Shown here: one piece after another, positions 17,745-63,771 of the stretch | How the letters are laid out: every line of letters begins with the position of its first letter | Position numbering within the stretch: position 1 is the first letter of the stretch | Source: a virus | Lineage: Duplodnaviria > Caudoviricetes | Reading direction: 5' to 3' (one strand) | DNA length: 63,771 bases | IMG/VR virus record: IMGVR_UViG_3300027741_000060 | Coordinates: 1-63,771 of that record | Position numbers and translations under genes: made by a program | The notes under the pieces: generated by a model | Told to the model about the DNA's origin: nothing | Seen by the model: only the letters and a program-made list of their open reading frames with translations | Databases searched by the model: none

Positions 17745-17748
17745 GATG

Positions 17749-19161
17749 CTATTGCTGTCGGGCTTGATACTCGCACTCGCGCCACCACGATGACATTTCC
17801 GGGAATGTTTTTAGGAAGTCAGTACCGCGGCGACGATCATGTTCGCTGAAGAATCTATAAAAGTCTGCCCTGTTCTGTGAGAGGTAGACCGGATCCAGTT
17901 GTTGGCCACGACGCATCCAAGCAATGTCTCGGTCCAGTCTAGCAACCTCATAGTCCTTGAATCCATGAAAGGGATCTTCGGGTGTTTCTTGCTGAATACT
18001 CATTTGATCCTTGAGACGTTCTAGTTTGGCAGCATAGCTCTCGGGCAGCAGTTGTAGGCTCTGCCAATGCGGTTGGCGCAACACCGGGGTGTCAAACCAT
18101 ATGCGCTGATAGGTCTTGCTGTGGGTTTTTCTCAAGCCCAGGATGCCAGCAAACAACTGCTCCAGACTGGTAACTGACAGGTTGTTCATTGTGACAATAA
18201 ATGTGATGCTGTTGCGATAAGGAATCTCGGTTAAAAATTGATTGACTCGGTCCCACAACAGTTCAAAGTCTAGACCGTGTCTCATGTATTCAGCCTGTGC
18301 ACCCCACCCATCTAAACTGATGTATTGCATGAAGTGCTCTAGCACACCTTCTTGACACAGTTTCGTAAGATAACCTTTGTAGCGTTGCCATGACTTTTCA
18401 TCCACTGAAAAGTTGGAAGTCACATTGAGATGCAGTCGGGGATTGGGATTGGCCAACACATAATCAAACACACGATAGGTGTTCTTGTCCAGCATGGGTT
18501 CGCCACCGGTCATGCGAAAATGTTCCAGCTGTGGATACAAGGTAGGCCACCATGACCAAAACGCATCCACATAAGGATTGTGTTCTCTCACAGGTATGGG
18601 ACGATTACGACCCTGAAAGTGCGTGGGGTCATTGTGTGTAGTACTGGTGGGGTAGCCGCCCAGGCGTTCAATTTCTTCTGCCCAGCTGGAACTGAATTGT
18701 GGACTGCAATAGCTGCACTTGAGATTGCACACATGATTGAAGTTGACTTCCACATAGCTGGGGATGACATCATCTTCGTCGCCGATAGAATTTTTAATCC
18801 GTTCAAAATCCACGGCTGCCCAGGGCTCACCAGATCTGTAGTGACGATCACTTAGCTTGCCTTCGTTTTCCATGTTCCAGCAGTACTGACACTCTGCGGG
18901 ACGCTCACCCGACAACATCAGCTTGCGTTGAGCTTTTTTGTGGCTGGTATTGTGCAGTGCACTGGGATTGGCAGCAATTTCCTCCACGGGTATCGCATGC
19001 AAGGGAGGATGATAACAACTGTTATTGAGTCCTGTGGGCAAGTGAAAGCTCACCTGTTTCCATTTGGCAAGGCATAGGGAATGACCCAGTTGATCCTTCA
19101 TTTGTTCAGCTGAGCTCAAGAACTTGCTCTTGTTCCCTACTGACTCGTCACCTTTGTTCAT
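17749..19161 (-). CDS. Radical SAM protein with N-terminal Cys/His domain
   Basis: CNLKCSYC, GGEP; CLAKW...SCYHP...CQYC; clear paralog of 15275..16612 (shared NPYVDAFxSWW and DxRRGxDF). Confidence 0.9.
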   Translation of the reverse strand: MNKGDESVGNKSKFLSSAEQMKDQLGHSLCLAKWKQVSFHLPTGLNNSCYHPPLHAIPVEEIAANPSALHNTSHKKAQRKLMLSGERPAECQYCWNMENEGKLSDRHYRSGEPWAAVDFERIKNSIGDEDDVIPSYVEVNFNHVCNLKCSYCSPQFSSSWAEEIERLGGYPTSTTHNDPTHFQGRNRPIPVREHNPYVDAFWSWWPTLYPQLEHFRMTGGEPMLDKNTYRVFDYVLANPNPRLHLNVTSNFSVDEKSWQRYKGYLTKLCQEGVLEHFMQYISLDGWGAQAEYMRHGLDFELLWDRVNQFLTEIPYRNSITFIVTMNNLSVTSLEQLFAGILGLRKTHSKTYQRIWFDTPVLRQPHWQSLQLLPESYAAKLERLKDQMSIQQETPEDPFHGFKDYEVARLDRDIAWMRRGQQLDPVYLSQNRADFYRFFSEHDRRRGTDFLKTFPEMSSWWRECEYQARQQ

Positions 19162-38700: not shown

Positions 38701-40726
38701 AATTAAACAATCGTACGCCACCGCGGAATTCCAACACTGGGCGGCGTGCACGATAGGCATTGTCCAAACTGGGGACTACACCGTTGTATTCTGCTGTGGC
38801 TGAGATCACATCAGTATGGAACCAACGATTGCTTCGACTCCAGGCATTGAGGTCCGGACTGGCACGATTGATTGTGAGATAGTCTGTGACCACAGGTTGA
38901 TTAAGGCTGGCGTCAAAATTGCCGTCATCGAATCCCACAGAATCAAATGGCAAAGTCAAACTCTTGGTGTAAGGTTCGGGAGTGACATAGTTGCCAACTG
39001 GTAACAATTGAATAGCAGAGCCAACACCTTCCACATAGTATTGTTGATTTTGATAACTTTCAGGCACAATATTGCCGCGGAACTGTACCTTGAGTCCGTT
39101 GGTGAACTTTACACCATTAGGACTGGTGTACTGTGATTTACCAACAATTTCTTCGATGTACAAAGTGGTTGAGCCCGTGGGATCCACCATTCTCAACTGT
39201 CCCACAATTCCAGGGTCGGTACCATCTTGGTAGTACAAGATGTTTTGAATGGCTGTGAGCAAGGGAATTCCTTCGATCACCCCCGATGCATTTCGATACC
39301 ACTCGGTCTTGGAATATTCAGCACCATATGCCACGGAGAATTTTTGCAATTTGTCAACCAGTAAAACACTGTTCAATTGCAAATAAACCGCACCATACTC
39401 ATCAGTTTGATAACGAATTTGCCACACACTGGTTCGGAGATTCTGATCTGTTATGTCTCCCCAGCCGTTGGCAGAATCCAAAAACACAATGGTACGGCCA
39501 TCAAAACTGGATACTCCGTCGATGCCACCATGTTCAGCCAAGAATGGTGCCAGGAACTGATTGTTGATTTGATTAAATGTCAAATTGGTCACAAAATCAA
39601 CTGGCACTGGTGTTGTTGAATTTCCAATGTAAGACAATCCATAATAAAAATTCTGTGCGGTGTTGTAGGGCACCGCAAAATTTACTACACCTAGATCTTC
39701 ACCATTGTTGGTGACACCTAGCACATCTCGACTGGATATATTGGGTGCCCAAGGCAACTGACCAGACACACCTGGTGCTGCTTGAATCCAGAATCCGGGA
39801 CCGGTGCCTGGAGTACCGTCAACAATATTGATCACACCCTGCATGTTGAATTGATTCTGACAGGCATAATACAAGGTGTCGGGTGCGTCTTGTGGCACCA
39901 CAAATGTTATCGATCCTGTGACTGAACCATTTCTAGCAACACCAGTGTTGTAGGCATCTTCAGTGCCCTGCGAGGGCTGTGTTTTGATCCAGAACGGAAA
40001 TACACCACCGGTCATGGCCAGATCAAACACATAGGTATTGCCACGAGCCAAGGTCAGTGTGAGATTGGGTTGATAGTCAATGAGGTAGGCCGAGGTTCCT
40101 GTGTTGCCCACACGAAAGTTCACAGTCTCCTTGGCATTTTGTGCCACTTGAAAAGTGTAATTGCCACCGCGTAGGAGAGAGATAACTGGATTATCTCCGG
40201 GATAGTTACCGATCTCGCTTTCTACTGTGTAAACACCGTTGGCACGAGTGATCACAAAGCGGTTGGCAATGGGAACTGTGCCAGCATACACATCCACAGG
40301 ATCCGGGCCACCTGGCAACCAGTAGTACTGACTGAAATTCACCAGTTTGTCAAAGTCAACAAACGGATCCCAGGTGTAGTAGTCACTGGTGTAGAGTCGA
40401 TTGCTGTTGGCAGTGTCGGCACCTTGCAAAGCCAGAGCATTGCTGATGCCAGGGTAGGTAATAGTGTCTTGAATCCGATTGCTGTCAGGATCCAGCATGA
40501 CCACACCAGGTTCCAGTTGATAGTTAACTCGTTCGGCTGTGGGTTCTATCACATAACGATCTGTGGCATTGACTCCGGGTCCCACTCTGCGACCCACATA
40601 GCCCTGAGTTTTTTTGAATCGGGGCTCTTGAACCAGCTGATCCAGGGTAGCCGACAATACCTGTCGGTTGGTAGGCGTTTGAAATATTTCCGGGAGGAAA
40701 TCAACAGTTCTCACACGATCAACCAT
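26723..40726 (-). CDS. Giant baseplate wedge/virion structural protein (4667 aa, gp7-position)
   Basis: Uninterrupted ORF after gp6; FG-GAP-like repeats (FGxxV...VGAP), GDGxTxxF repeats, GGSGYT repeats, VKPYH motif. Confidence 0.8.
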   Translation of the reverse strand: MVDRVRTVDFLPEIFQTPTNRQVLSATLDQLVQEPRFKKTQGYVGRRVGPGVNATDRYVIEPTAERVNYQLEPGVVMLDPDSNRIQDTITYPGISNALALQGADTANSNRLYTSDYYTWDPFVDFDKLVNFSQYYWLPGGPDPVDVYAGTVPIANRFVITRANGVYTVESEIGNYPGDNPVISLLRGGNYTFQVAQNAKETVNFRVGNTGTSAYLIDYQPNLTLTLARGNTYVFDLAMTGGVFPFWIKTQPSQGTEDAYNTGVARNGSVTGSITFVVPQDAPDTLYYACQNQFNMQGVINIVDGTPGTGPGFWIQAAPGVSGQLPWAPNISSRDVLGVTNNGEDLGVVNFAVPYNTAQNFYYGLSYIGNSTTPVPVDFVTNLTFNQINNQFLAPFLAEHGGIDGVSSFDGRTIVFLDSANGWGDITDQNLRTSVWQIRYQTDEYGAVYLQLNSVLLVDKLQKFSVAYGAEYSKTEWYRNASGVIEGIPLLTAIQNILYYQDGTDPGIVGQLRMVDPTGSTTLYIEEIVGKSQYTSPNGVKFTNGLKVQFRGNIVPESYQNQQYYVEGVGSAIQLLPVGNYVTPEPYTKSLTLPFDSVGFDDGNFDASLNQPVVTDYLTINRASPDLNAWSRSNRWFHTDVISATAEYNGVVPSLDNAYRARRPVLEFRGGVRLFNSGTQAKQPIDIIDFGVTDAFSTVNGTTGYGVDGYQFRSGTRVIFAADQDPQVRNKIYQVTFISPDTEPPVITQPIINLVPAADAEVTIDQTVLCLDGLTLQGTTFYFDGVDWIQAQQKNSVNQAPLFDIYDSTGTSLANREKYFSSTFTGTKLFSYAVGAGTIDPVLGFPLRYLSLSNIGDIVFDNNLYTDTFVYVSNSAGVTENISMGFARQYSNRVEFSQLTGWQTAVTKSLVRQQFQFAYDGTPLRLDVPVAENSAIPAVLLYVGSQFQSPDRYTVTTTAATTTIVLNQAYAPGAVIEVAVLSDQVSAQGFYQVPVNLENNPFNANSPVFTLGTARSHYETIGENLIGLTGPINGANNSRDLGNIVPYGLQILQQSSPMTLAGFFMRDQAYDIFKSLAFNDREYTKFKSRMLQAVVSGEWINDTPSDILDAVVTELGTGKNDTNSFYWSDMLPAGVRSTTNKYTVTAISTATFDTVQTYDFDTANYRALLVWVNDRMLAINTEYVVAENGPRLTILIPLRVGDVVSIREYANTAGNYVPNTPTKLGLYPAWRPRIFVDPNYVNPTPVIQGHDGSVTVAFGDVRDSVLLEFELRIYNNLKTQNNPVPLTIAEVLPGYFRTTDYSAAEITGILSESFLTWVGWNKLDYRSQDYVANNAFTYNYSAAGDRLNNQPLLGAWRGIYRYFYDTLSPNLTPWEMLGFTEQPSWWENRYGPAPYTSDNLVLWDDLAQGLVADPSGFRVRPEYVRPNLQYYIPVGTEGELLPPLDSVVGQYDPNVWRKSWVVGDGGPVEAAWWTSSSYPFAVMRLLSLTRPAEFFSLFADRDLYRYNTDFGQYLYNNRYRLDASGIEVYGNGVSKASYINWIVDYNQQLGINSTSALQAQLASLDVRLCYRMASFSDKQYMKVYAERSSPDSQNSSLLLPDESYNLSLYKNVPFAYVNYSAVIVQSTDTGYAVLGYSTTDPYFNIFASRSNGQLQTISAGGSTVRVPRQYYDNIVQVPYGFNFANQTAVADFLLCYGEYLTSQGLTFTTRENGYTLDWQQMAREFLYWANQGWATGSVINLNPVATRLEATRAGAVIDSIQFQNPENLVIDQNRLPVNARDLVIERLGNFFSITSTTSSSIAYIQLRFTNYEHLVVLDNVSIFNDLIYNPTTGARQSRINLVAATSTDWNGTLDAQGFVLNQDNVKPWQPNRRYARGEIVLYKNNYWSAQGIVQPKLEFDYNDWFKSDYARIQRGLLPNIANKADQLANSYDTQRANLESDNDLLSYGLIGFRPRQYMTDLNLDDVSQVNLYQQFIADKGTIRAAEIFTGANLGKETAEYNIYENWAVKRGTYGANANRSFFELKLNAADLQSDPATIQVINPGESSLANQTVFLSDLWRQSFKITSTDILPTTYTQVTDVALPTAGYVNFNDVDITMFSLDDPTNLSQNIGNIGIGTRIWVAKVNNYDWDIYRANKTPGFIGAISDNLNGTSQVVFTQAHGLKRGDLLVIKYFDSAVNGVYRVLNMDDSAPNVLTIAYDFGRSKQHIIEGQGIGFFLQTMRVKQASDVAALPYATELRSGARAWVDNDGAGHWQVLEKQQPFTTGADLITGIVSENTNFGSAVAQAYNNAGALIGAPGYNSSRGAVYGYGGNQDTAYTQTAILELSAVDTVNYGASVEFGHQVWAVAGAPASASGMGYATVIKFSQISNAYDITQLLTVPDGDFSVRGFGTAVAVSQDERWMYVSAPGANRVYAYGRVDVEDQSVTYTTTGVKGYNYSNSIMIDQPDQLTVAINDVVYALDVDYTVNLSTGAVVFTIPPQAQQLLTITRRMDHSFTGDGSTVTFSFSPYLYGIDGVESFLLSVNSVLQRPGIDYVVDEDSQVVFNSAPAVDTSITATVNTYFKYIDTISVPGLDADAEFGQSLSVTTDGRQIVVGAPGATVGSVESGSAYVFDRYVTRYQITDVDQTTYAIPAEWRAPVAVLLNNRYLTNSASYIGGEFSVVGNNIVLSSSVSLSPGDALDIESNQFSLVEEFSSHVQFDEASYGAAVDMCPYNCSIYVGAPTDGSVLVQAGSVERRVNQSRVYGVTVSQVANPTLVAGDVVRINNYPVAVPAAPDTNIAGLINAINNSGIPNVVATPTRNVKFTADGITQTFDVGNIYSAAASYTPVVYVGQNLQINNTDYVYDNSTQQIVFFAAPPANQTVTVVSGRMTLSVKNSAAAESFNKLTVLPGASGTAFDDLGFATFVYTQTIVSPLPVAYAEFGSSVTVNTTALTLVVGAPRGNVYEPMDFDSGNTYFDEHSTTYFSPIVGSGVVYTYDYLPSAADSAADPGMFVFGQQIYTSTLADQDRFGDSVNYVTGRLLVGAPGNDPATEPVNYGTVSVFNNTTGTAAWTVKHQQQPVVDVALLNSVFMYNKLASTVTSYLDFFNPLQGKILGVAQENIDYTGAVDPARYNQGSVHNIGQPWSRDHVGEIWWDTNNVRFIDPNQDDTVYASRRWGQVFPGSRVDIYQWIESTQPPANYTGPGTPFSLISYTTRAEIGSNGVIATLYYFWVRNITTVNTVANKRLSTSAIASYIENPRGSGIAYMAPLDASTVAIYNVLDLISATETILHVEYDREANDANVHIEYELIAQGRADSFLSSNLYLKLQDSFCGVNSSGAPVPDPGLSPAERYGVEFRPRQSMFVDRFAALENYLGRANAVLKNYPITEIRKFDLLNSREPEPSTASGAWNQRVVDLTELSYQNLALVNPGWKYLVATDADNNGLWTIYQVVSGAAQNELTLTRVQNYDTALYWSYINWYQPGYNSTVNPVAEVANYAALATLNVPVGASVRVTANSQNKFEIYQRTVTGWDRVGLEDGTIEFSKELWDYGVGRFGFDAEVFDAQYFDQEPVIETRRIIQAINQELFVDDLLIERNRTLMLVFDFVLSEFSAPEWLVKTSLIDVDHRVRSLEPYQIYSQDNQTFVLDYLQEVKPYHVQVREFNLNYNGQDVYAGNISDFDVPAYYNNNLTIPQYVSPILLPYTVSTATGTGTPSDTADTSASATLWTQTPWDQWYNNYLLSIQDVVITDGGSGYTEPPVVTVTGDCTEPAEMTATVDSAGRVYRINIVSPGAGYSTTAVITFSGGNGSSARASAVMGNDLVRSFRTTIRYDRYQYETTIVDWEPGVTYTDSTQVRYVNRVWSAVGTVESDSFDPSNWQLVDPATLSGVDRTMGLYVPAVNQPGLSLPLLIDGVEYPGVQVQGVNFDIRPGFDAVGFDSFPFTNLSYEPDGTPTFYLGLLDARYQSSYLDLYLGTRYTDVNVEGGGYVDTYSSHAPEELIPGSEFDTLDLRVYTAPGSDWTGNGHGFRTGITKFVADSTAPVVSFADVLPYPAQIIVSNQTSGLDLNQNHDYSINWLAQEVTISSRVAVGDIVAILVYELGGGNQLFKQTYVGSDIGESVTIPVQYSLIQDLAIFVNGNIIMGYSYEQAQSNTTLVVFDTPGIADTDFVLIVAVGATVVGDTTTAYNWSAPQTQQFVSAGEMSYTLTNSLIYSNPDTAVITVNGRRARSSAGVAYLADGSVGYQLPTRIGISQGTIPDVDVRVYVNDIPQILNVDYGVESWDGETPREVIFVDPPSSGESVKIYVTTGAQAYIASGQLQFVPGSGLTPLAGDIVSVTTWNDTRQQDILTQVYVGATTINQVVQEAYDTTDFDTGDVVDEPGSFDYAAGEIVTVNQLLLDQPVENPDRLWVTLNGLKLYPNQDFDLVGNEIVLLSGRILKPTDTVVVSEFTNSTVPEAMAFRIFQDMRGVQEIYRITVNTSTELTQDLLATDDVIHVKNASALTEPDLSESGNSWGVLTIQGERIMYRVRDTVTNTITSLRRGTGGTGAADHAAGSAVYDMSRGNLLASQYQDRVLSNITYPLVSGENLGDGVTKIFVAQTIDLDTGDSTSLNLAVEVYLGGTRLLTGFEVIADAPVTVEFDTAPPAGVEVAILVRQGVTWYAPGEGTASNGVALQDTDTPAARFLCGN

Positions 40727-53728: not shown

Positions 53729-53762
53729 CCCAGAAAATAAACTGTGCACATAATGAATCAGG

Positions 53763-53795
53763 TTGACAACGCCCGATCATGTGTTATACTAAATA
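53763..53795 (+). promoter_or_regulatory. Sigma70 promoter (TTGACA-16 nt-TATACT, extended -10 TG) with overlapping TAAATA
   Basis: TTGACA 53763-53768, TGtTATACT 53782-53790, TAAATA 53790-53795, RBS AGGAGA near 53803. Confidence 0.7.
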
Positions 53796-53815
53796 TCTAC
53801 CCAGGAGAACCATCA

Positions 53816-54718
53816 GTGTCAATATCCTCCACGCCCGCGGCACCTCGCGTGAATTATCTCAACAATCGAGACATACTCAAAGAAATACATCTCAGCAAAA
53901 ACACCTACTGCACCTACCTTGATCCTGACCGTGATCATCAGTATGACATCATCCTGCCAGATGTGAGCAAAATCAACATTCGCACCGTGGCCGAAGCACG
54001 CAGAAATCGTGCTGACCGTATCAAACGCGAAACCGGTGTTGAACAAGATCCCAAGAAAATTCCCAACACTGATCTAGTGTTTCGGGTCACTTGTTGGGAT
54101 CACATTCCCATGGCCGCCAAAAAAGTGCCCAAAAACAAACCCAAAAAGCGCAAGATCGAAGACATCTTGGATTTTGATGACACAGTAGATGATCCCTTGG
54201 CCGATCTCATGCTGGAGGAACCCATACTGGATCCCACTCACATGCGAGTGAACTTCCCGCCCTTTTGGCACTACCGAATTGATGACAATCGAGAGCCGTA
54301 TCTAGTAGGCAAGAGTCACTGGCGCGGCGACTTGGCCACAGGAGAGTTTTCCAAAGATCATGGAACCATGACACGCAAGCTGGCCACCATGTTCATGAAG
54401 CTGTGCGAACGCTATGCCACTAGATCAAACTGGCGTGGCTACAGCTACAACGAAGAAATGCGTGGTCAAGCTCTCTTGCAACTCAGCCAAATTGGTCTGC
54501 AGTTTGATGAAAGCAAGAGTCAAAATCCCTTTGCCTACTACACAGCAGCCATCACCAACTCGTTTACTAGGATCTTGAACCTGGAAAAGAAAAATCAAAA
54601 CATTCGAGATGACATCCTGGAAATGAATGGTCTAGATCCTAGCTGGAGTAGACAGAATTCTGGGCGTGCCAGCATGGCCCAACTGTCCGGACCGGTCGTA
54701 TCTAGCCTGGATGAGTAG
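53816..54718 (+). CDS. gp55: Late-transcription sigma factor gp55-like
   Basis: NYLNNRD, NWRGYSYNEEM, FDESKSQNPFAYYT; upstream of gp47/gp46 as in T4-like phages; GTG start after RBS. Confidence 0.85.
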   Translation: MSISSTPAAPRVNYLNNRDILKEIHLSKNTYCTYLDPDRDHQYDIILPDVSKINIRTVAEARRNRADRIKRETGVEQDPKKIPNTDLVFRVTCWDHIPMAAKKVPKNKPKKRKIEDILDFDDTVDDPLADLMLEEPILDPTHMRVNFPPFWHYRIDDNREPYLVGKSHWRGDLATGEFSKDHGTMTRKLATMFMKLCERYATRSNWRGYSYNEEMRGQALLQLSQIGLQFDESKSQNPFAYYTAAITNSFTRILNLEKKNQNIRDDILEMNGLDPSWSRQNSGRASMAQLSGPVVSSLDE

Positions 54719-54730
54719 TATACTAGGGAA

Positions 54731-55747
54731 ATGAGTAACCTATTTAAAAAAGCTGCAGTTTTCACGGACATCCATTTCGGTCTCAAGTCAAACAGCACTT
54801 TGCACAACGAAGACTGCCTAAATTTTGTGAAATGGGCTACTGCTAAAGCTCGTGCAGAAGGTTGTGAAACCTGTTTGTTTCTTGGCGACTGGCACAATTC
54901 TCGAGCCAGTATAAATATTGTCACGCTGAACTACAGCCTGCGAGCCTTGGAGCACTTAAATGACAACTTTGATCACGTGTATTTTATTCCTGGCAATCAC
55001 GATCTATACTATCGTGACAAGAGAGACATTCAGAGCGTGGAATGGGCGCGCCATCTCCCACGTGTCACTGTATGCAATGACTGGTTTGAGTGCGACGATG
55101 TTGTTATTGCTCCTTGGCTTGTGGGTGATGATCACAAAAGGATCCCTCGGCTGAAAGGTCGCTACATGTTCGGGCACTTTGAATTGCCCGGATATCTAAT
55201 GAATGCCATGGTGGCCATGCCGGATCATGGTGATATACAAAGAGAACACTTTGGCAACTTTGAGCATGTGTTTACCGGTCACTTTCACAAGCGACAAACA
55301 CAAAAGAACATCACCTACATTGGCAACTGCTTTCCGCACAACTATGCCGATGCCGGCGACGATGAACGCGGTATGATGATCTTGGAATGGGGGCAAGCAC
55401 CCAAATTCCATGCTTGGCCTGACCAACCCAGATATCGTGTGTTGGGCTTGGCCAATTTAATTGATCGTGCTCCTGAGTTGTTGGCTGCAAACATGCATGT
55501 GCGTGTGCAGCTGGACATTGAAATTTCATACGAAGAAGCCAACTTCATTCGAGAGACCTATGTGCGAGACTATGGGCTAAGAGAAATGAGCCTAATACCC
55601 AACAAGAACTCATCTGTGGACACCGACATGGCACCAGGCGAAATCCGCTTTGAATCGGTAGACCAGATTGTGACAGATCAGCTGACCAATATCGAATCAG
55701 AATTCTACGACAACCGACTTTTGTTGCAAATTTATCAGACCTTATAG
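54731..55747 (+). CDS. gp47: Recombination endonuclease subunit gp47 (Mre11/SbcD)
   Basis: Metallophosphoesterase motifs DIH, GD, GNHD, GH, GHFH. Confidence 0.9.
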   Translation: MSNLFKKAAVFTDIHFGLKSNSTLHNEDCLNFVKWATAKARAEGCETCLFLGDWHNSRASINIVTLNYSLRALEHLNDNFDHVYFIPGNHDLYYRDKRDIQSVEWARHLPRVTVCNDWFECDDVVIAPWLVGDDHKRIPRLKGRYMFGHFELPGYLMNAMVAMPDHGDIQREHFGNFEHVFTGHFHKRQTQKNITYIGNCFPHNYADAGDDERGMMILEWGQAPKFHAWPDQPRYRVLGLANLIDRAPELLAANMHVRVQLDIEISYEEANFIRETYVRDYGLREMSLIPNKNSSVDTDMAPGEIRFESVDQIVTDQLTNIESEFYDNRLLLQIYQTL

Positions 55748-55867: not shown

Positions 55868-56812
55868 ATGAAAAAACAAATTTTCACAGCTCTACTGAGC
55901 ATGTGCATTGCAGTATCATCTGCTGTGGCATTTCCCAACAAACCTGTAAGAATCATTGTTTCGCTGCCAGTGGGGTCAGGGCCTGATGTACAGGTTCGAC
56001 GAGCAGCCGAAGTGCTGACAGAAAAATGGAATCAACCGGTTGTGATTGACAATCGTCCAGGGGCGTCAGGATTGATTGCCATGGATGCGTTGGTCAAAGA
56101 GGCCGCCGACGGTCATACCATAGGACTTTTTCACACCGGCGATATTGTGGCTTTTCCAATTTTGTACAATCGTCCGGAACTCATAAACAATGTTGAACCA
56201 TTGATGCCATTTTTCAAAGCAGACATGATGTTGTTTACGTCAAGCCAGATCAAAAACATAGCTGAACTTCGACAGGAAGTTCAAAAGAACCCCATGTATG
56301 GCTCTTGGGGAACAGGATCCATTGGTCATGTGGTTGGTGCAGAATTTGGCAGCACAATGTCTTCTTCGGCTACTCATGTTCCATACAAAGAATACACTGC
56401 CTGGTATATTGATTCAGCAAATCTTGTGTTGAGTTATGGATTTAGTGCCCCGGGTTCTTCCAATGCCATGTATCGTGCAGGAAAAATACGCTACTTGGCC
56501 ATTGCAGCAGCTCGACGAGATCCAAAATTCCCGGATGTTCCGACCATACGCGAGTTGACTGGTGAAAACATTGTATCCCAAAGTTGGTTGGCATTTTATA
56601 TAAACCAAGGCGTCAATGACACTGTCAAACGGCGTTTGGAAAACGACTTACGGGAAGCAATTGCCACCCCCAAGATACAAAACATGATTACCGACAATTA
56701 TTACATACCGTTGAACAATTTGTCTTTGGCCGAATTCCAAAAACAAGTGGCCAAAGACAAAGAAAATTACGCCACTGTGTTGAACAAATACAAAATCAAT
56801 CTTAAACAATGA
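55868..56812 (+). CDS. Bug/TctC tripartite tricarboxylate transporter substrate-binding protein
   Basis: Signal peptide then FPNKPVRIIV...GSGPD, VVIDNRPGASG, ADGHT, HVPYK, PDVPT. Confidence 0.88.
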   Translation: MKKQIFTALLSMCIAVSSAVAFPNKPVRIIVSLPVGSGPDVQVRRAAEVLTEKWNQPVVIDNRPGASGLIAMDALVKEAADGHTIGLFHTGDIVAFPILYNRPELINNVEPLMPFFKADMMLFTSSQIKNIAELRQEVQKNPMYGSWGTGSIGHVVGAEFGSTMSSSATHVPYKEYTAWYIDSANLVLSYGFSAPGSSNAMYRAGKIRYLAIAAARRDPKFPDVPTIRELTGENIVSQSWLAFYINQGVNDTVKRRLENDLREAIATPKIQNMITDNYYIPLNNLSLAEFQKQVAKDKENYATVLNKYKINLKQ

Positions 56813-58080
56813 GTCGTTGGCCAGAATCTAACACCAGCAGAATCCCTTACTGGGTATATCGTGATCAAACTGTATATCAACAAGAACTAGAAAAAATCTT
56901 CTACGGCGATCATTGGATCTATGTAGGATTAGAATGTGAAATACCCAACACAGGTGATTTTAAAACCAGTTGGGTTGGGGAAAGGGAAGTGATTGTTGCT
57001 AGACACAACAACAGCATACAGGTGTTTGAAAATCGATGCGCACACCGAGGTGTCAGATTCTGCCAAAAAAAGCATGGTAATGCAACCAGTTTGGTATGCC
57101 CTTATCATCAGTGGAGATACAATCTCAGTGGAGATTTAATTGGAGTACCATTTGAGCGTGGTGTTGCCAAAGGAGATCGCAAATTTGAAGGAATGCCTGC
57201 TGATTTTGACAAAAAACAAAACGGAACAGTCAAGCTGAATGTGGCTTGTTTGCATGGAGTCATTTTTGCTTCATTTAGTCACACAGTTGAACCCATTGAA
57301 CAATATCTAGGTCCCACAATATTGCCCTGGTTCGAGCGCACATTCAAAAATAGAAAGTTAAAAATATTAGGGTACAATCGTCACAAAATTCCGGGTAACT
57401 GGAAGCTGATGATGGAAAACATCAAAGATCCATACCATGCTGGATTACTGCACACCTGGTTTGTGACTTTTGGTTTATTTCGAGCCGATCAATCCAGCAG
57501 TAGAATCGTGATTGACAGCACGGGTCGACACGCAGTCATGCTCAATCGACGAAACCAAGCCACAAACAACGAAGTCACTCAAGGAATCGACAGTTACAAA
57601 CATCAAATGACCCTGCATGATCCAAGAATGCTTGACATTGTTGAAGAATCTTGGTGGTCCGTTCCAGATCCAGATAACCCCGGTACTTTTATCAATCCCA
57701 CAACCTGTATGCAAACACTATTTCCCAGTGTGGTCATACATCAACAAATAAACTCATTGAGCACACGTCAAATTGTGCCCAGAGGCAATGATTGTTTTGA
57801 ATTTAATTGGACTCATTTTGGGTTCGAAGACGACAGTGAAGAAATGACATTGCGTAGATTAAGACAGGCCAATCTTTATGGACCAGCAGGATTTGTCAGT
57901 GGTGAGGATAGCGAAGTACTTGAACTGTGTCAGCAAGGGTTTGATCAATGGCAAGATCAGGGTCAACAGTTGGTACAGATGGCTGGCAAGGATTTGGGCG
58001 AAACAACCGATCACCCAGTGACCGAAACACTTTTGCGCGGAATGTATCGATACTGGAAAAAGGTAATGGGCTATGAATAA
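56809..58080 (+). CDS. nagG: Rieske aromatic ring-hydroxylating oxygenase large subunit, salicylate 5-hydroxylase-like
   Basis: Rieske NRCAHRG...CPYHQW; mononuclear iron ENIKDPYHAGLLH and distal GEDSE; RLRQANLYGPAGFVS. Confidence 0.8.
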   Translation: MSRWPESNTSRIPYWVYRDQTVYQQELEKIFYGDHWIYVGLECEIPNTGDFKTSWVGEREVIVARHNNSIQVFENRCAHRGVRFCQKKHGNATSLVCPYHQWRYNLSGDLIGVPFERGVAKGDRKFEGMPADFDKKQNGTVKLNVACLHGVIFASFSHTVEPIEQYLGPTILPWFERTFKNRKLKILGYNRHKIPGNWKLMMENIKDPYHAGLLHTWFVTFGLFRADQSSSRIVIDSTGRHAVMLNRRNQATNNEVTQGIDSYKHQMTLHDPRMLDIVEESWWSVPDPDNPGTFINPTTCMQTLFPSVVIHQQINSLSTRQIVPRGNDCFEFNWTHFGFEDDSEEMTLRRLRQANLYGPAGFVSGEDSEVLELCQQGFDQWQDQGQQLVQMAGKDLGETTDHPVTETLLRGMYRYWKKVMGYE

Positions 58081-58546
58081 AAATGAATGGCAATCAGCTG
58101 TTGACAATATCAATTCTGACTATGGGTTTGCAGTTGACCAACACAACTGGCAAGATTGGTTAGATTTATTCAGCAACGATGCACTGTATCACATTCAGAG
58201 TCGAGAAAATTTTGATAGAAAGTTGCCACTGAGTTTGCTTCGACTTGACAGCAAAAATATGATGAAAGATCGAATCTACGGAATCACCGACACAATTTTT
58301 CATCAACCTTACTATACACGACACATAATTGGGAGAGCAAAAATAACACAATTCAATGATTGCCAGTGTGAATGTGTAAGCAACTATGTGGTAATCCGAA
58401 CCAAACACCAGCAAACCAGTGAAATATTCAATGCAGGTTATTATCTAGATACCATGAAACTGTTGGATGGCGAAATAAAAATCAAAAGTAGAATTTGTGT
58501 ATATGATACTGAGATGGTGCCAAATTCGTTGATTTATCCTGTGTAA
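58073..58546 (+). CDS. nagH: Ring-hydroxylating oxygenase small (beta) subunit
   Basis: WLDLF, RENFDRKLPL, DRIYG...YYTRH, C-terminal PNSLIYPV; coupled to the alpha subunit. Confidence 0.8.
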   Translation: MNKNEWQSAVDNINSDYGFAVDQHNWQDWLDLFSNDALYHIQSRENFDRKLPLSLLRLDSKNMMKDRIYGITDTIFHQPYYTRHIIGRAKITQFNDCQCECVSNYVVIRTKHQQTSEIFNAGYYLDTMKLLDGEIKIKSRICVYDTEMVPNSLIYPV

Positions 58547-58563
58547 TTTGTTAAAATCAGTTG

Positions 58564-60330
58564 ATGATTAACATTAAAACCCTCACTGTTAGAAATTTCA
58601 TGAGTGTGGGTGCAGCCACACAGGCCATCAACTTTGACCGCAGTGACCTTACCTTGGTGTTGGGTGAGAATCTTGACCTAGGTGGCGATGGCTCACGCAA
58701 CGGCACCGGCAAGACCACAATCATCAATGCACTCAGTTATGCCTTGTATGGTCAAGCACTGAGCAACATCCGAAAAGACAATCTAGTAAACAAAACCAAC
58801 GGCAAAAACATGTTGGTGAGCCTGGACTTCTCTGTAGGCGATCAGGTGTACAGAATTGAGCGCGGTCGCAAGCCCAATGTGTTGAAATTCTATGTCAACG
58901 ATGAGCAACAGCTGGCACAGGACGAAGCACAGGGCGACTCACGAGAAACCCAAACAGCTATAGAACGTGTGTTGAACATGAGTCATGACATGTTTCAGCA
59001 CATTGTGGCTCTTAACACATATACCTTGCCATTCTTGAGCTTGAAGGCCAATGAGCAACGAACCATTATTGAACAGTTGTTGGGAATCACACAGTTGAGC
59101 GAACGAGCCGATGCCGTGAAAGAACTCAATAGACAAACGAAGGATGCCATCACCCAAGAAGAACATCGCACAAGAGCAGTTCAAGAAGCCAATCGTCGTA
59201 TTGAAGAACAGATTGAAAGTCTGCGTAAACGACAAACCTTGTGGTTGAGAAAACAAGCCGAGGATGTGGCTCAGTTGACTCAGGCTGTGACTGATCTTGA
59301 ACACATTGACATTGATCATGAAATTCAAGCACATAGAGATCTTGAAACTTTCCACACTGTGAAAAAAGCCCGAGACGAAGCCGAACGATGGATTCGCAGC
59401 ATTGACAGTGATGATGCAAAATTAGAAAAAACTCGAGCCAAGTTACAAAAAGAAATTACCGATCTTGACAATCATGTGTGCTATGCGTGTGGACAGAATC
59501 TACATGATCACAAGCAAGACGAAATTAGAGCAGCCAAACAGGAAGCCTTGCAAGAAACTGCGCTACAATTGTTGGCTAACTCTAGTCAGCGATTTGAACA
59601 TCAAGACCGGTTGTCACAACTGGGAGAAGCTGTGCCAGCACCACAAGTTTTCTATGACACCCTGGAACAGGCCCTGAATCATCGCAACAGCGTGGACACA
59701 TTGCGTAAAGATCTGGCTCAACGACAGACAGAAACTGATGTGTATGCTGAACAGATCTCAGACATGCAGAGTCAGGCTCTGCAAGAAGTCTCCTATGACA
59801 CTCTCAATCAGTTGACTCGACTACAGGATCATCAAGAATTTTTACTCAAGTTACTGACCAGCAAGGATAGCTTTGTTCGCAAAAAGATCATTGATCAAAA
59901 TTTGAGTTACCTCAATGCCAGACTCACTCACTATCTAGATCGCATGGGCTTGCCACACACTGTAGTATTTCAAAACGATCTCACAGTCAGCATCGAAGAA
60001 CTGGGTCGTGAACTGGACTTTGACAACCTGAGCCGTGGTGAGCGCAACCGACTGATTCTCTCCATGAGCTGGGCCTTCCGTGATGTGTTTGAAAGTCTTT
60101 ATCAACCCATCAACATCATGTTCATCGACGAAATGATCGATTCTGGTCTGGACACCGCAGGTGTAGAGAATGCCCTAGGCTTGCTCAAGCACATGAGTCG
60201 CGAGAGAAACAAGAGTGTGTGGTTGGTGAGTCACAGGGATGAGTTGACTAATCGAGTGGAAAACATATTGCGAGTGGTCAAAGAAGGTGGATTCACTTCG
60301 TATGATTCTGGCACTGAAGTCATGCAATAA
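58564..60330 (+). CDS. gp46: Recombination ATPase subunit gp46 (Rad50/SbcC)
   Basis: Walker A NGTGKTT, coiled coil with CYAC zinc hook, LSRGE signature, FIDE Walker B, SH loop. Confidence 0.92.
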   Translation: MINIKTLTVRNFMSVGAATQAINFDRSDLTLVLGENLDLGGDGSRNGTGKTTIINALSYALYGQALSNIRKDNLVNKTNGKNMLVSLDFSVGDQVYRIERGRKPNVLKFYVNDEQQLAQDEAQGDSRETQTAIERVLNMSHDMFQHIVALNTYTLPFLSLKANEQRTIIEQLLGITQLSERADAVKELNRQTKDAITQEEHRTRAVQEANRRIEEQIESLRKRQTLWLRKQAEDVAQLTQAVTDLEHIDIDHEIQAHRDLETFHTVKKARDEAERWIRSIDSDDAKLEKTRAKLQKEITDLDNHVCYACGQNLHDHKQDEIRAAKQEALQETALQLLANSSQRFEHQDRLSQLGEAVPAPQVFYDTLEQALNHRNSVDTLRKDLAQRQTETDVYAEQISDMQSQALQEVSYDTLNQLTRLQDHQEFLLKLLTSKDSFVRKKIIDQNLSYLNARLTHYLDRMGLPHTVVFQNDLTVSIEELGRELDFDNLSRGERNRLILSMSWAFRDVFESLYQPINIMFIDEMIDSGLDTAGVENALGLLKHMSRERNKSVWLVSHRDELTNRVENILRVVKEGGFTSYDSGTEVMQ

Positions 60331-60347
60331 CTTTATGAGATACAATT

Positions 60348-61460
60348 TTGTTTGATTACAACGCTATCAACGAGTATCAACTAGAAATTACTACTTATTG
60401 TAATGCCGCATGTCCGCAATGCCCAAGAAATCTTGGAGGGCATGGCACAAATCCCTTGATGCCACTTACACATCTGCCCAGGGCGGTTATTGACTCATCA
60501 TTCCTTATTGATCTATGTAAGAGTCTTCGACAGATATTTTTTTGTGGAAGCTACGGTGATCCAATCATGCATCCTGACTTCTTGGACATACTTAGAGATT
60601 TTCGACGCAAATCACCAACACTGTGGCTATACATGCACACCAACGGTGGCGCACATGATCCGGAATACTGGAGAGAAATTGCAAAAATCATGAACGGATA
60701 TGGCCAGATAGATTTCGGAATTGACGGACTAGAAGATACTTTACATTTGTATCGTCGCAATGTAAAATACAGCAAAGCCATTGCCAATGCTCGGGCATTT
60801 ATACAAGCTGGTGGTCGTGCACAGTGGAATTTCATTGTTTTTCATCACAATGAACATCAAGTTAAACAAGTACAACAACTAGGCAAAGAACTAGGATTTT
60901 TCAATGTATTGATCAGAAAAACTGGAAGATTTTTCAATCACAGAACCATTGAAGAAATGACTCGCTGGCCTGTAGGGAATAACTATGTATTAGAGCCGCC
61001 TAACAATCCTGACTATCGAAATCAAAGCATGATGTTTCTTCCAGACTTAAAGAAACAATACAACAATATCAAAGATTATTTTAACTCAACAGAAATCAAA
61101 TGTGATGCCATGATTGGACACAAGGTAGCCATCAATGCCGAAGGATTAGTTTTGCCTTGCAACTTTTTCAATCATAATTTGTACGACCTTAGATTTTACG
61201 AGCCAGGAGTAATGCCAGAAGCTAATGAGCTCAGCTCAGTTGATGGAAAAAATCAAGTAAGATCTTTTTTAGAATCACATAACTTAGAAAAGTTAAACAT
61301 CAAAAATTACAGCATCGAAAATATTTTTAAAAATCCCATGTGGCATGATCTAGTGGATAGCTGGAACAAAACATTGTACAACGGTCGACTGTTCGAGTGT
61401 GCAATGACCTGTGGGTCAAAAATTACCAAGGTATGGGATCAAGGAGGAAGCAAAAGATGA
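60348..61460 (+). CDS. Radical SAM protein with C-terminal SPASM/Twitch-like Cys residues
   Basis: CNAACPQC, CGSYGDP, HTNG, C-terminal KC...PC...CAMTC. Confidence 0.88.
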   Translation: MFDYNAINEYQLEITTYCNAACPQCPRNLGGHGTNPLMPLTHLPRAVIDSSFLIDLCKSLRQIFFCGSYGDPIMHPDFLDILRDFRRKSPTLWLYMHTNGGAHDPEYWREIAKIMNGYGQIDFGIDGLEDTLHLYRRNVKYSKAIANARAFIQAGGRAQWNFIVFHHNEHQVKQVQQLGKELGFFNVLIRKTGRFFNHRTIEEMTRWPVGNNYVLEPPNNPDYRNQSMMFLPDLKKQYNNIKDYFNSTEIKCDAMIGHKVAINAEGLVLPCNFFNHNLYDLRFYEPGVMPEANELSSVDGKNQVRSFLESHNLEKLNIKNYSIENIFKNPMWHDLVDSWNKTLYNGRLFECAMTCGSKITKVWDQGGSKR

Positions 61461-62041
61461 AATTTTTAATCACTGGCGGTAATCGAGGACTAGGACTACA
61501 TCTAGTAGAACATTTTCATGGCGATTCTATCAGTCGAAACAATGGATGGGATATTACTCAAGATGTAGAGAAAATTGCCAAACATAGTTTAGATTACGAT
61601 GTATTTGTAAACAATGCCTTCGACGGGCCACCTCATGAATCCTGGGCAAATTTTGCACAAACCAATCTGTACCTTGCGGTGTACGATGCTTGGAAATCTG
61701 CAGACAAATCAGGATACATTTTTAACATTGGATCATCCGGCAGCAAGCATATCGTGAGTCCCGAGCCTAGATTTGAAACTTATCGAGTATCTAAGGCAGC
61801 CTTGGAACATGCCAGCAAACAAGGCACGCAAGCATTTAAACAAAATACGGTAAAATTTCAAACCAGTTTATTGACTCTGGATCGTCTTGACACTCCGCTA
61901 AGCCAGAGCAGATCGTCCTGGACTGGAAACGGAATCAATTTGCAAGATATTAGCAATTTCATAAAGTATGCAATGTCTGTTGGCAAAAACACTGTGATCG
62001 AAGAAACAACTTTTTATTGCAATTTCAATTACAATTCATAA
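61457..62041 (+). CDS. Short-chain dehydrogenase/reductase
   Basis: TGGNRGLG, VNNA, NIGS, YRVSK; ATGA coupling to the radical SAM gene. Confidence 0.85.
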   Translation: MKFLITGGNRGLGLHLVEHFHGDSISRNNGWDITQDVEKIAKHSLDYDVFVNNAFDGPPHESWANFAQTNLYLAVYDAWKSADKSGYIFNIGSSGSKHIVSPEPRFETYRVSKAALEHASKQGTQAFKQNTVKFQTSLLTLDRLDTPLSQSRSSWTGNGINLQDISNFIKYAMSVGKNTVIEETTFYCNFNYNS

Positions 62042-62071
62042 TTATGTTACATATTTCTTTAAGATATCAAC

Positions 62072-62557
62072 ATGACATGGCTATACAACAATCAACTGGT
62101 AGAAAATCTACCCCAAGATTGTGTGGGTTTTGTGTATTTGATAACTAATACCGTCAACGGCAGAAAATACATAGGCAAAAAACTAGCAAAATTCTCAAAA
62201 ACAACTTATCAAACAGTCAAGCAAAAAAACGGCACCAAGAAACGCAAAAAGATACGCAGCAAAATTGATTCAGACTGGAGAGACTACTGGGGTTCCAGCC
62301 CGGAACTTTCAAAAGATATACAGGCACTAGGCATCGAAAACTTCTCAAGACAAATACTACACTATTGCACCAGCAAGGCAGCCTGCTCGTACATTGAAGC
62401 ACGAGAACAATTTGATCGACGAGTGTTGGAATCTGAGGACTACTACAATGGTCACATACAGGTTCGAGTACACGGCTCTCATGTATTAAACAAAACACTG
62501 GCACTGACAGGCAGCGATCACGACACTGTGATCAGCGACATGGCTGATCCCCATTGA
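62072..62557 (+). CDS. GIY-YIG endonuclease (T4 Seg/EndoII-like)
   Basis: GFVYLITN...KYIGKK, YWGSS, EAREQ, YYNG. Confidence 0.85.
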   Translation: MTWLYNNQLVENLPQDCVGFVYLITNTVNGRKYIGKKLAKFSKTTYQTVKQKNGTKKRKKIRSKIDSDWRDYWGSSPELSKDIQALGIENFSRQILHYCTSKAACSYIEAREQFDRRVLESEDYYNGHIQVRVHGSHVLNKTLALTGSDHDTVISDMADPH

Positions 62558-62935
62558 GGAACGGTGCAATACCCGGTCCAGACTTGGGCGTCAAAGGCAA
62601 TTGCTAACTTAAGGCAACAAATGGTTGGGGCTCTGTGAAACAGATACAACCCCTGCTCATAGGATTTGGGTCTATTCCGGATCACTAGGGTTCCGTTGAT
62701 ATGTGAAGCTTGAGTAGGGGGTACCGGTCAACCGCCTCCGCGCAGGAAACTGCAATCTCATTAGAATAGATGACTGATGCTACTCGGATAATGGCGCCGT
62801 CAATTCACCGTGCATACGGTGAATTATGACCAAATTAATCTGGATAATAGCTTGAATCGCTTCGCTCTTGATACAATTCAAAAAAGAAAAATATTGATGA
62901 GCGAGAGCGAATCAATAGAACTTCGTAGAAGTTCT
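62515..62935 (+). ncRNA. Candidate large structured non-coding RNA/element (family not recognised; strand inferred)
   Basis: ORF-free region with many stems: GCAG-GAAA-CTGC, AATTCACCGT-GCAT-ACGGTGAATT, CCCCTGCTCA/TGAGTAGGGG, crossing TCTATTC/GAATAGA. Confidence 0.55.
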
Positions 62936-63552
62936 CACAGTGTAGATGATAATCGTTTAAGACTTTGATACTCTTTCTGAGCTAAACTATTTTTAAGATT
63001 ATGTTCTATTGATTTTGGTTTACCTTTGTGTCTAGCACTTATCTTTGCTCTTGATTCGGGAGAAAGTAATTCAGCAACTTTTCTTCCTTTATTCCAAGGT
63101 GTGTGCCCTTTCATCTTTTCAGTTGATTGTTTAGGTTTTCCTTTTGTACTAGCACTTTGTTTAGCAACAGATTCGGCAGATCTTGGCCCTGTTTGCTTAC
63201 CTTTGTTCCACGGAACTCTACCTGTTAGTGCCTTGCTAACCCTGAGTTTAGTTGCCGACGATAAATTCAATGATCCGTCACCACCGTCTGTTTTATTGTT
63301 TAAAATACCTGTGCTGATATCTTTGCGGCCATACCAACGAATCAATCTGCGTTCTATAGCCAATGCACCTAATTCTGTTAAGTTAGCCTCGACAATAATA
63401 ATCTTAGATTTGTCTTTTGGTATTTGAAAATGGTGTTTACCCCAGGCTCGACTTTCTTGTCCTTTACCTATATAATAAGGTGTATTATCTGACTTGCGTA
63501 GATAAGCATAGACATAAAAGCCTATAGGTGGATTTGTTTTTGTAAATATCAT
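62935..63552 (-). CDS. GIY-YIG homing endonuclease with NUMOD3-like repeats
   Basis: FYVYAY...[16 protein letters not shown], two PWNKG(K/R) repeats; AT-rich. Confidence 0.85.
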
Positions 63553-63620
63553 TGCTGATTGCTCCTTCTAAGCATTAGAGTAGTTGGGGATTGCCGTCCC
63601 GCGAACTACACCTTTATTTA
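63553..63620 (-). promoter_or_regulatory. Late promoter plus structured leader of the homing endonuclease gene
   Basis: TAAATA, then GTAGTT..GGGA-CGGCAA-TCCC..AACTAC stem-loop, then TGCT..AGCA stem enclosing the AAGGAG RBS. Confidence 0.55.
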
Positions 63621-63771
63621 TTCAAAAACATCCGGAAAATCTCTAAACAAGGCGTGTTGGATGTCTCCGGAAACAAACTGATTGAAGCTTTTGTGCTTGA
63701 CTTCTAGTTCGCCTTCAAGTGGTGCTACCCGTTTAAATGCTTCGTCCATTTGACCCATGTTTTTAAATTCC
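63618..63771 (-). CDS. C-terminal fragment of a protein resembling DUF6614 (partial)
   Basis: Manual translation EFKNMGQMDEAFKRVAPLEGELEVKHKSFNQFVSGDIQHALFRDFPDVFE*; family recalled from the ALxRDFPD ending. Confidence 0.5.
   Translation of the reverse strand, partial: EFKNMGQMDEAFKRVAPLEGELEVKHKSFNQFVSGDIQHALFRDFPDVFE

Follow-up and report, generated by a model that had tools for sequence, protein, structure and literature searches.

Large, ornate non-coding RNAs such as GOLLD, ROOL, OLE, raiA and HEARO have come to light in phages and mobile DNA through comparative genomics; few RNAs of such size combine pseudoknots with conserved loops, and past finds have led to new biochemistry. RNA also stands beside nuclease genes in known layouts, where the end of a transposon nuclease gene is overlapped by its guide RNA or a homing-type nuclease adjoins a conserved RNA gene, as such nucleases often do. 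Here we analyse a stretch of 63,771 bases (IMG/VR record IMGVR_UViG_3300027741_000060; below, the window), a contig of a T4-like myovirus with an estimated completeness of 18%, in which a structured RNA sits between two convergent GIY-YIG genes (62072-62557 on the plus strand and 62935-63552 on the minus strand). An earlier reading of the letters alone (the sequence-only reading) had placed a candidate novel large plus-strand RNA at 62515-62935, abutting the first of these genes, and had taken it for a ribozyme-like or nuclease-associated RNA by analogy with HEARO/OMEGA RNAs, or for a structured replication origin. We find that positions 62522-62849 on the plus strand form a genuine large pseudoknotted structured RNA, and that it belongs to an extended family of Polynucleobacter-1 (RF01718), a motif listed under 'Burkholderiales, fresh water/estuary' as likely cis-regulatory in Table 1 of Weinberg et al. 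(2010; PMC2864571).

The comparison with described systems is close in some respects and distant in others. With GOLLD, ROOL, OLE, raiA and HEARO the RNA shares a length of several hundred nucleotides, many helices, pseudoknots, conserved loops and a setting in phage or mobile DNA (as these classes are generally described; compare 10.1101/2024.12.08.627333), but it gives no match to their Rfam models and is smaller than GOLLD, ROOL and OLE. Like the omega RNA of IscB (HEARO) and the guide RNAs of TnpB, it is structured and lies against, or runs into, the gene of a small nuclease; unlike them, it neighbours a GIY-YIG or PD-(D/E)XK gene rather than a RuvC-type one, it is separable from that nuclease, and we found neither transposon ends nor a variable guide at a terminus, nor a target match in the complete phage genome searched. 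The arrangement also recalls the free-standing Seg/Mob homing endonuclease genes of T4-like phages, in that GIY-YIG genes flank a highly conserved sequence, with the difference that the first GIY-YIG gene here has no DNA-binding domain and is conserved rather than sporadic.

The evidence for the fold comes from comparison of relatives. Against dinucleotide shuffles the region folds better on both strands (z = -4.96 for the plus strand and -4.06 for the minus strand). Searching with the GIY-YIG protein, we obtained 61 related viral loci, in about 20 of which some 310 nt 3' of the GIY-YIG gene are 76-99% identical to the window. On 14 of these relatives RNAalifold predicts 92 pairs, 26 of them compensatory, so that the covariation check on regions downstream of homologous GIY-YIG genes, which the sequence-only reading had proposed, comes out in its favour. 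A second set of loci, independent of the GIY-YIG gene, was collected by scanning for an invariant 19-mer and contributed at least 120 further viral loci. RNAs with the 5' domain of the window (type A) were aligned with MAFFT (55 sequences with pairwise identity below 96%, 3 of the 58 kept sequences being omitted to limit insertions), and a structure of 89 pairs in 20 helices was tested on the alignment: 92.6% of cells are paired, as against 84.8% in shuffles and 40-46% in controls with slid partners, 50 of the 89 pairs change on both sides, and compensatory cells number 380 versus 112 in shuffles. None of 500 shuffles attains any of the five measures used. The 3' domain of 43 RNAs of a second type (type B) behaves in the same way, with 95.0% of cells paired versus 79.2% in shuffles, 29 of 50 pairs compensatory and 0 of 500 shuffles as high. 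GC/GU and AU/GU alternation is frequent in the type A pairs (28 GC and 19 GU in one, 33 GU and 21 GC in another), and because GC-to-GU changes would give A-C mismatches on the minus strand, the folded strand is the plus strand. The large structured plus-strand RNA of the sequence-only reading is thus borne out by covariation and by strand.

The individual pairings that had been proposed met with different fates. The complementary segments that had been listed are all present at their coordinates, and the outer limits of 62515-62935 match the conserved unit well. The loop pseudoknot (PK1) covaries, with compensatory changes in 5 of 6 pairs; we count six pairs where seven had been proposed because 62677 is taken by the enclosing stem. 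Among the 55 type A relatives the GNRA hairpin at 62742-62753 has compensatory changes in 3 of 3 stem pairs, and the hairpin at 62802-62825, tested over 62804-62823, in 4 of 8, while the terminal hairpins at 62892-62934 are conserved and covary in 14 relatives. Four other stems carry no covariation signal, namely GATCAC/GTGATC, TCTGT/ACAGA (62632-62644), the 10-bp stem 62650-62659/62711-62720 and TGATCC/GGATCA (62546-62551/62679-62684): pooled, they are paired in 71.0% of cells as against 70.8% in shuffles, with 207 of 500 shuffles as high (for GATCAC/GTGATC only the inner three pairs, 62519-62521/62528-62530, are counted, the alignment starting at 62519). Bases of these stems covary with other partners, 62627-62630 with 62650-62653, 62711-62714 with 62757-62760 and 62717-62721 with 62735-62739. 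A crude test of PK1 and the second long-range helix (PK2) by their longest complementary run did not discriminate them from shuffles, and column counts were used instead.

The supported structure consists of two domains followed by two terminal hairpins (Table 1). The 3' domain is made up of hairpin P8, an invariant hairpin at 62717-62739, hairpin P13, a closing helix with weak support and, in type A only, the GNRA hairpin, and the same helices, PK1, PK2 and segments X and Y recur in the 43 type B RNAs. There PK1 is compensatory in 7 of 7 pairs and paired in 97.3% of cells. Both the invariant hairpin and the GNRA hairpin lie inside PK2. The outer pair of this helix is AU in 27 of the 55 type A sequences and UA in 25, and 3 of 5 of its pairs are compensatory in type B. 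The 5' and 3' domains would be joined by a weakly supported helix (62596-62598/62779-62781; 77.6% paired, one compensatory pair), and a further weak helix is 62786-62789/62838-62841. Beyond segment Y, an A-rich run (62881-62891) leads into terminal hairpin 1, whose loop motif is found in 94 of 101 loci, 13-79 nt past Y, and also on the RNA strand of the bacterial loci described below, where the convergent gene is absent and a second hairpin likewise follows. The RNA probably continues through both terminal hairpins to 62934, and its size is about 330-410 nt. A terminator scan lists nothing at 62892-62934; on the minus strand a T-rich run follows hairpin 1.

Table 1. Positions of the RNA, its parts and nearby genes in the window
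Feature	Position	Strand	Remarks
5' domain 'type A', stems P1-P7	62522..62659	+	helices 1-10 show compensatory changes
3' domain, common to all family members	62660..62849	+	helices 11-20; same architecture in 43 type B RNAs
PK1 pseudoknot, 5' strand, in P8 loop	62671..62676	+	pairs with 62765-62770
PK1 pseudoknot, 3' strand	62765..62770	+	pairs with 62671-62676
PK2 long-range helix, 5' strand	62711..62714	+	pairs with 62757-62760
PK2 long-range helix, 3' strand	62757..62760	+	pairs with 62711-62714
Segment X (ACUC + heptamer 62786-62792)	62782..62793	+	
Segment Y (AUCU + heptamer 62842-62848); 3' end of conserved core	62838..62849	+	
Terminal hairpin 1, loop GAGCG + two variable bases + AGCGAA	62892..62915	+	stems covary
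Terminal hairpin 2	62916..62934	+	4 of 8 pairs compensatory in 14 relatives
SegE-like GIY-YIG gene, 161 aa, usual upstream neighbour of the RNA	62072..62557	+	PF19835, 2.3e-33, residues 3-129
Second GIY-YIG gene, NUMOD3 motif, 205 aa, converging on the RNA	62935..63552	-	NUMOD3 6.6e-09; phrog_314 'homing endonuclease'
Late sigma factor gene	53744-54718		
gp47-like recombination nuclease subunit	54731-55747		
gp46-like recombination nuclease subunit	58561-60330		

Some smaller features lie in or beside the RNA. The stretch 62855-62872 on the plus strand is complementary to the loop of terminal hairpin 1 (62898-62909) and may offer it an alternative pairing; through this complement the minimum-energy fold turns 62853-62920 into one long hairpin, and 24 of 101 loci have the loop motif on the reverse strand, which is consistent with such a complement, as a candidate only. 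G+C content is 0.49-0.52 at 62400-62800 as against about 0.33-0.43 in the flanks. Mechanical open reading frames (ORFs) of 33-55 aa overlap the RNA region, no tRNA or tmRNA turned up, and a sigma-70 promoter scan is uninformative, with 5 sites versus 4.6 expected. AGGCA-like words, conspicuous to the eye, occur at 62499-62513 and in the 45 nt 5' of the RNA (up to four tandem copies in locus L068 and three in L066) and recur in the 5' domain (62594-62600, 62611-62617), never on the reverse strand. As a signal this motif was rejected: it is not enriched in the window (24 matches versus about 40 expected) and barely exceeds a control stretch (37/56 versus 26/56; 25/34 versus 24/34).

How the RNA relates to known families depends on which end of it is considered. 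The window has no Rfam match at gathering thresholds, and at E up to 10 over 61800-63771 there are only chance-level matches (E 4.7 and 8.3); RF01718 (gathering 37 bits) is among the models that do not match it at either setting. The Rfam comparison suggested by the sequence-only reading thus returns no family for the window and no strong match to anything known. Its relatives tell a different story. An Rfam scan of 14 related loci gives full-length RF01718 in 7, at 82-120 bits, and RF01718 is also present in 4 of 5 near-complete phage genomes; in the relatives the matches start directly after the GIY-YIG stop codon and correspond to the first 141 nt of the RNA. The type A profile, for its part, matches only the 3' half of the equivalent region in type B and a few type C loci (E 1e-8 to 1e-15 for type B). 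Novelty therefore holds for the window itself and fails for the family, members of which bear a catalogued motif as their 5' domain. Since the 3' domain is common and the 5' domain differs (type A in the window, RF01718 in many relatives), the family is modular: a conserved, doubly cross-linked 3' domain is combined with one of several interchangeable 5' domains. The 5' domain of the window is a previously undescribed variant of this extended Polynucleobacter-1 family.

The likeness to Polynucleobacter-1 lies in the same genomic position, the 3' domain found in relatives, and the freshwater/Burkholderiales habitat; the difference lies in the 5' domain of the window, which the model does not match, and in the catalogue's 'cis-regulatory' guess, which does not suit most phage loci. 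The Rfam model spans only about 40% of the conserved RNA, without the roughly 190-nt 3' domain, the X and Y heptamers or the terminal hairpins, so that an orphan 141-nt motif now becomes a modular RNA of the size given above, with an additional rule, X = Y, that we describe below. In the literature searched, the name Polynucleobacter-1 appears in PMC2864571 only. Two candidate descriptions were set aside: PMC10690425, which in the parts accessible to us holds no passage on nucleases or this motif, and a 2026 preprint whose accessible text on the 'extension of a known family' concerns a different motif. A group I intron also finds no Rfam match, and the sequence outside the unit is unconserved and differs between contexts.

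The most striking feature of the 3' domain is a pair of identical heptamers. Segments X and Y each consist of a tetramer followed by a heptamer, lie about 55 nt apart (47-64 nt in 98 non-redundant phage sequences), and are each preceded by variable unpaired flanks; the segment between them is a covarying hairpin that is kept everywhere. Each of the three variable positions of the heptamer is polymorphic (53 G versus 45 A at one of them), and they agree between X and Y in 97, 98 and 98 of the 98 sequences. Divergent phage members and four bacterial loci have quite different heptamers, and still X equals Y. The obvious partners were searched for as follows: within the RNA, no alignment column covaries in the way that a partner complementary to the heptamer would, no copy or complement of it stands at a fixed place within -2.5 to +1.5 kb, and the 18-mers of flank, tetramer and heptamer have no second match at up to 3 mismatches in one complete 347-kb phage genome. 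Promoter boxes, Shine-Dalgarno sequences and CsrA sites were rejected as accounts of X/Y or of the upstream motif, half of the sequences lacking the needed bases. The simplest readings of X = Y are that the two compete for one partner or that two copies of one partner are bound. To our knowledge, neither the swap of 5' domains nor paired identical heptamers is a feature of GOLLD, ROOL, OLE, raiA or HEARO.

We now consider where the RNA occurs. A covariance model of the 3' domain (R1) finds exactly one copy in each of five T4-like genomes of 331-349 kb (93-100% complete), and the same five genomes each have one PF19835 gene. No reverse transcriptase is present in any of the five, and template repeats in the style of a reverse transcriptase were rejected as an explanation on that ground. 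A blastn search with type A and type B RNAs against 50,697 phage records gave no match, no cultured phage in this collection being a known carrier, and a motif scan of genome contigs yielded, among the 120 matches listed, one that is true by profile (on a 1.7-kb contig of a Flavobacteriales metagenome-assembled genome); the other 119 look like chance in G+C-rich genomes. Among 151 sampled Burkholderiales genomes RF01718 is above cut-off in three (1.8-1.9 Mb) and weak in a fourth, all four measuring 1.7-1.9 Mb. R1 does not detect the 3' domain in these bacterial loci; read by eye, their sequences contain X and Y with the hairpin that separates them, as well as the terminal hairpin and its loop motif, and all of these lie on the RNA strand. 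A divergent DUF6641 gene stands upstream in the three bacterial loci scanned (L311, L312 and L316), an integrase and Zorya-like genes lie in the island of one genome and a ResIII helicase gene in that of another, other neighbours vary, and no nuclease gene adjoining the RNA was seen within the stretches examined at the four loci. The RNA is a single-copy element of giant T4-like freshwater phages of about 340 kb that is also found in mobile or defence islands of small-genome, Polynucleobacter-like Burkholderiales, so that giant lake phages and islands of their likely host group have it in common. Should a Polynucleobacter strain in culture prove to have such a bacterial copy, the RNA may become open to experiment.

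Two side observations belong to the bacterial islands. In L315 (G058:C4) the Zorya-like set, at 10849-18947, comprises a MotB/OmpA-like gene, an EH_Signature gene, an SNF2 helicase with an Mrr nuclease domain and a first gene of 493 aa. On the other side of the RNA locus of this genome (G058) lies a gene for a 212-aa tyrosine recombinase, about 900 bp from the RNA.

The relation of the RNA to nuclease genes is central to its interpretation. Neighbours were counted in at least 120 viral loci, mostly from one phage clade, of which 9 lie at contig ends and 111 are evaluable; all counts that follow refer to the matches listed. A GIY-YIG gene stands directly upstream of the RNA at 89 loci, 1-1.3 kb upstream behind an inserted ORF at 12-13, and is replaced by a different GIY-YIG/NUMOD3 gene at one, so that the sequence-only reading was right to place the RNA against a nuclease gene (a gene of the GIY-YIG family within about 1.3 kb upstream at 101-102 of 111 loci). 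At the eight loci without an upstream GIY-YIG gene, a PF24608 PD-(D/E)XK gene is directly upstream in three and farther away in one, and the others have T4 baseplate, PNP_UDP-like or MazG-like genes. In one locus (L048) the RNA lies on the strand opposite its GIY-YIG gene. Homologues of the GIY-YIG gene are found in 473 phage records, mostly of cyanophages, and with R1 the RNA is not detected in Melnitz, a Variovorax phage, S-RIM2 and L014, nor in the loci of distant homologues L053, L056, L058, L059 and L061. RNA and GIY-YIG gene thus each occur without the other, and as a fixed pairing the proposed nuclease association does not hold. That the RNA begins in the tail of the GIY-YIG ORF is true of the window, where it does so because the ORF is 161 aa long as against 142-144 aa in most relatives.

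Because RNA and GIY-YIG gene are separable and the upstream gene varies, we read the RNA as a stand-alone, trans-acting non-coding RNA of phages and mobile islands rather than an obligate nuclease guide, a reading to which we give a probability of roughly one half, its mechanism being inferred. In outline, the RNA would be transcribed rightward, either together with the upstream gene or from a start of its own, and would act in trans as a folded scaffold displaying X and Y as two identical single-stranded 7-nt elements. One partner might be bound twice by these elements, and it could be a strand of nucleic acid, in two copies, or a factor that forms dimers. The small nuclease genes would then be frequent but non-obligate neighbours, much as homing-type nucleases are beside conserved RNA genes.

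Several points weigh against reading the RNA in this way. A nuclease gene lies directly upstream in most of the listed phage loci, and where PD-(D/E)XK takes the place of GIY-YIG, a functional pairing of nuclease and RNA would predict the same substitution. Since one phage clade dominates the loci, the percentages do not count independent events. The engagement of a partner by X and Y is conjecture on our part. The weak link between the two domains may leave room for two adjacent RNAs. As weak support for expression, relatives of 62517-62926 are covered by contigs of two lake metatranscriptome runs, each from a different study, a contig from a third (X2, record 13) bridges the end of the GIY-YIG ORF and the start of the RNA, and X9 leaves the RNA uncovered; such contigs show presence in RNA libraries and not ends, strand or level, they may be DNA carry-over, and the bridging contig fits co-transcription as a 3' untranslated region (3' UTR) equally well.

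The more exciting alternative, which is live even though we think it unlikely, is that the RNA is the cofactor or guide of a nuclease that consists of little more than its domain (the 142-aa GIY-YIG or the PD-(D/E)XK protein of about 175 aa), with the X/Y heptamers and their 5' flanks as specificity elements. The protein encoded at 62072-62557 is, by domain search, a GIY-YIG catalytic domain alone in which no DNA-binding domain was found, and on this model the RNA would aim or regulate it; for the same reason, and because it is conserved rather than sporadic, this ORF does not look like a free-standing homing endonuclease. A nuclease is immediately 5' at about 92 of the 111 evaluable loci among the matches listed (89 GIY-YIG, 3 PD-(D/E)XK) and within about 1.3 kb at about 14 more, the PD-(D/E)XK proteins being non-homologous occupants of the same position, each of the five genomes pairs one nuclease gene with one RNA, and the way in which the RNA start abuts or overlaps the 3' end of the ORF recalls the guide RNA at the end of a transposon nuclease gene. 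Set against this are the RNAs that have no nuclease neighbour, at no fewer than four phage loci and at the four bacterial loci, the wide spread of the GIY-YIG family without the RNA, the opposite strands of L048, and the specificity elements themselves, for which the complete 347-kb genome offers no second match and the surrounding -2.5 to +1.5 kb no complement. The analogy with HEARO/OMEGA RNAs drawn by the sequence-only reading finds no footing in the tests made either: the HEARO model matches neither the window nor the 14 related loci, no IscB/TnpB-type gene and no variable guide at an end of the RNA were found, and no second match to a specificity segment turned up in the complete genome. 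If the RNA does work with small nucleases, it would constitute a new RNA-protein system; otherwise it is still a new large phage RNA.

Less likely are a cis-acting role, a ribozyme and an element that functions as DNA. The first of these, to which we assign a distinctly low probability, would make the RNA either a structured 3' UTR with a part in the stability, processing or termination of the upstream message, or a long 5' leader of downstream genes. Its start within a few bases of, or inside, the end of the upstream ORF suits a 3' UTR, as does the RNA-library contig that spans the two, and same-strand ORFs follow the RNA in L066, L126, L068 and the bacterial L311; the motif is, besides, marked likely cis-regulatory in the catalogue entry (PMC2864571, Table 1). 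In the window and most relatives, however, the next downstream gene is on the opposite strand, and the gene upstream may be GIY-YIG, PD-(D/E)XK, MazG-like, baseplate or a divergent DUF6641. The stabiliser elements known to us are also far simpler than this RNA, with its 330-410 nt, its invariant loops and its two long-range interactions.

That the RNA is a ribozyme or a processed RNA, with X and Y as equivalent sites of cleavage, ligation or circularisation at which the 47-64 nt unit between them would be released or joined, seems to us very improbable. Its size, pseudoknots and invariant internal loops are in the range of catalytic RNAs, two identical heptamers that each follow a similar tetramer could be two equivalent sites, and the spacing between them is held within bounds; yet the ribozyme and intron models of Rfam give no match with the E limit raised to 10, nothing inside the RNA covaries as a complementary partner of the heptamer, so no internal guide is visible, and the flanks outside the unit are unconserved, unlike exons. 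A DNA-level element, be it an origin of replication whose primer is a transcript or two recombination sites with matching 7-bp cores, is the least probable of all: crossover cores do require identical short direct repeats such as X and Y, the recombination genes gp46/gp47 lie beside the RNA in phages and a tyrosine recombinase gene lies near the G058 copy, but covariation and strand-specific G-U pairs indicate selection on a single plus-strand fold and argue against a purely double-stranded DNA element, the X-Y interval forms a covarying hairpin of its own, the examined parts of the phage loci showed no integrase gene, and arm-type inverted repeats around the heptamers are not evident by eye.

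A further reading, a long shot, is a two-site adaptor in which two tandem modules present the same 7-nt specificity element, each module being a structured handle followed by its variable flank, tetramer and heptamer. If this were true, one RNA could hold two matching nucleic-acid sites, or a site and its copy, for an associated enzyme; in phages this would be the small nuclease, and in bacterial islands it might be a recombinase. Phage-host conflict would then involve DNA or RNA transactions programmed by RNA in a way that is new.

The remaining observations concern the surroundings of the RNA. The second GIY-YIG gene lies between the RNA and a DUF6614 gene, its stop codon abutting terminal hairpin 2, and window 62941-63609 has no match in any of the 61 related loci; the gene looks like a typical free-standing homing-endonuclease-like insert that arrived recently and lies outside the RNA unit. 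An ORF inserted between the GIY-YIG gene and the RNA (L071 4369-5259, L072 8190-9017, L091 536-1606) encodes 275-356 aa in the 12-13 listed loci that have it, and the three that were tested have no Pfam or PHROG match. In Synechococcus phage S-RIM2 (L305, 2465-3155) a GIY-YIG homologue is followed 160 nt on by a tRNA-Arg gene, and this small GIY-YIG family may generally adjoin RNA genes; its members are often annotated 'NAD synthetase', which looks like a mislabel. The window also has baseplate and virion genes. A variable cargo slot (60348-62041) separates gp46 from the GIY-YIG gene and contains radical SAM and short-chain-dehydrogenase-like genes that are present in some relatives only, and between the gp47-like and gp46-like genes (55868-58546) there are a TctC-type solute-binding gene and genes for the alpha and beta subunits of a Rieske oxygenase, auxiliary metabolic genes that are unusual in a T4-like phage. 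On the minus strand at 26723-40726 there is a single open frame of 4,667 aa, and a second one, of 1,134 aa, comes after it; both presumably encode giant virion or fibre proteins.

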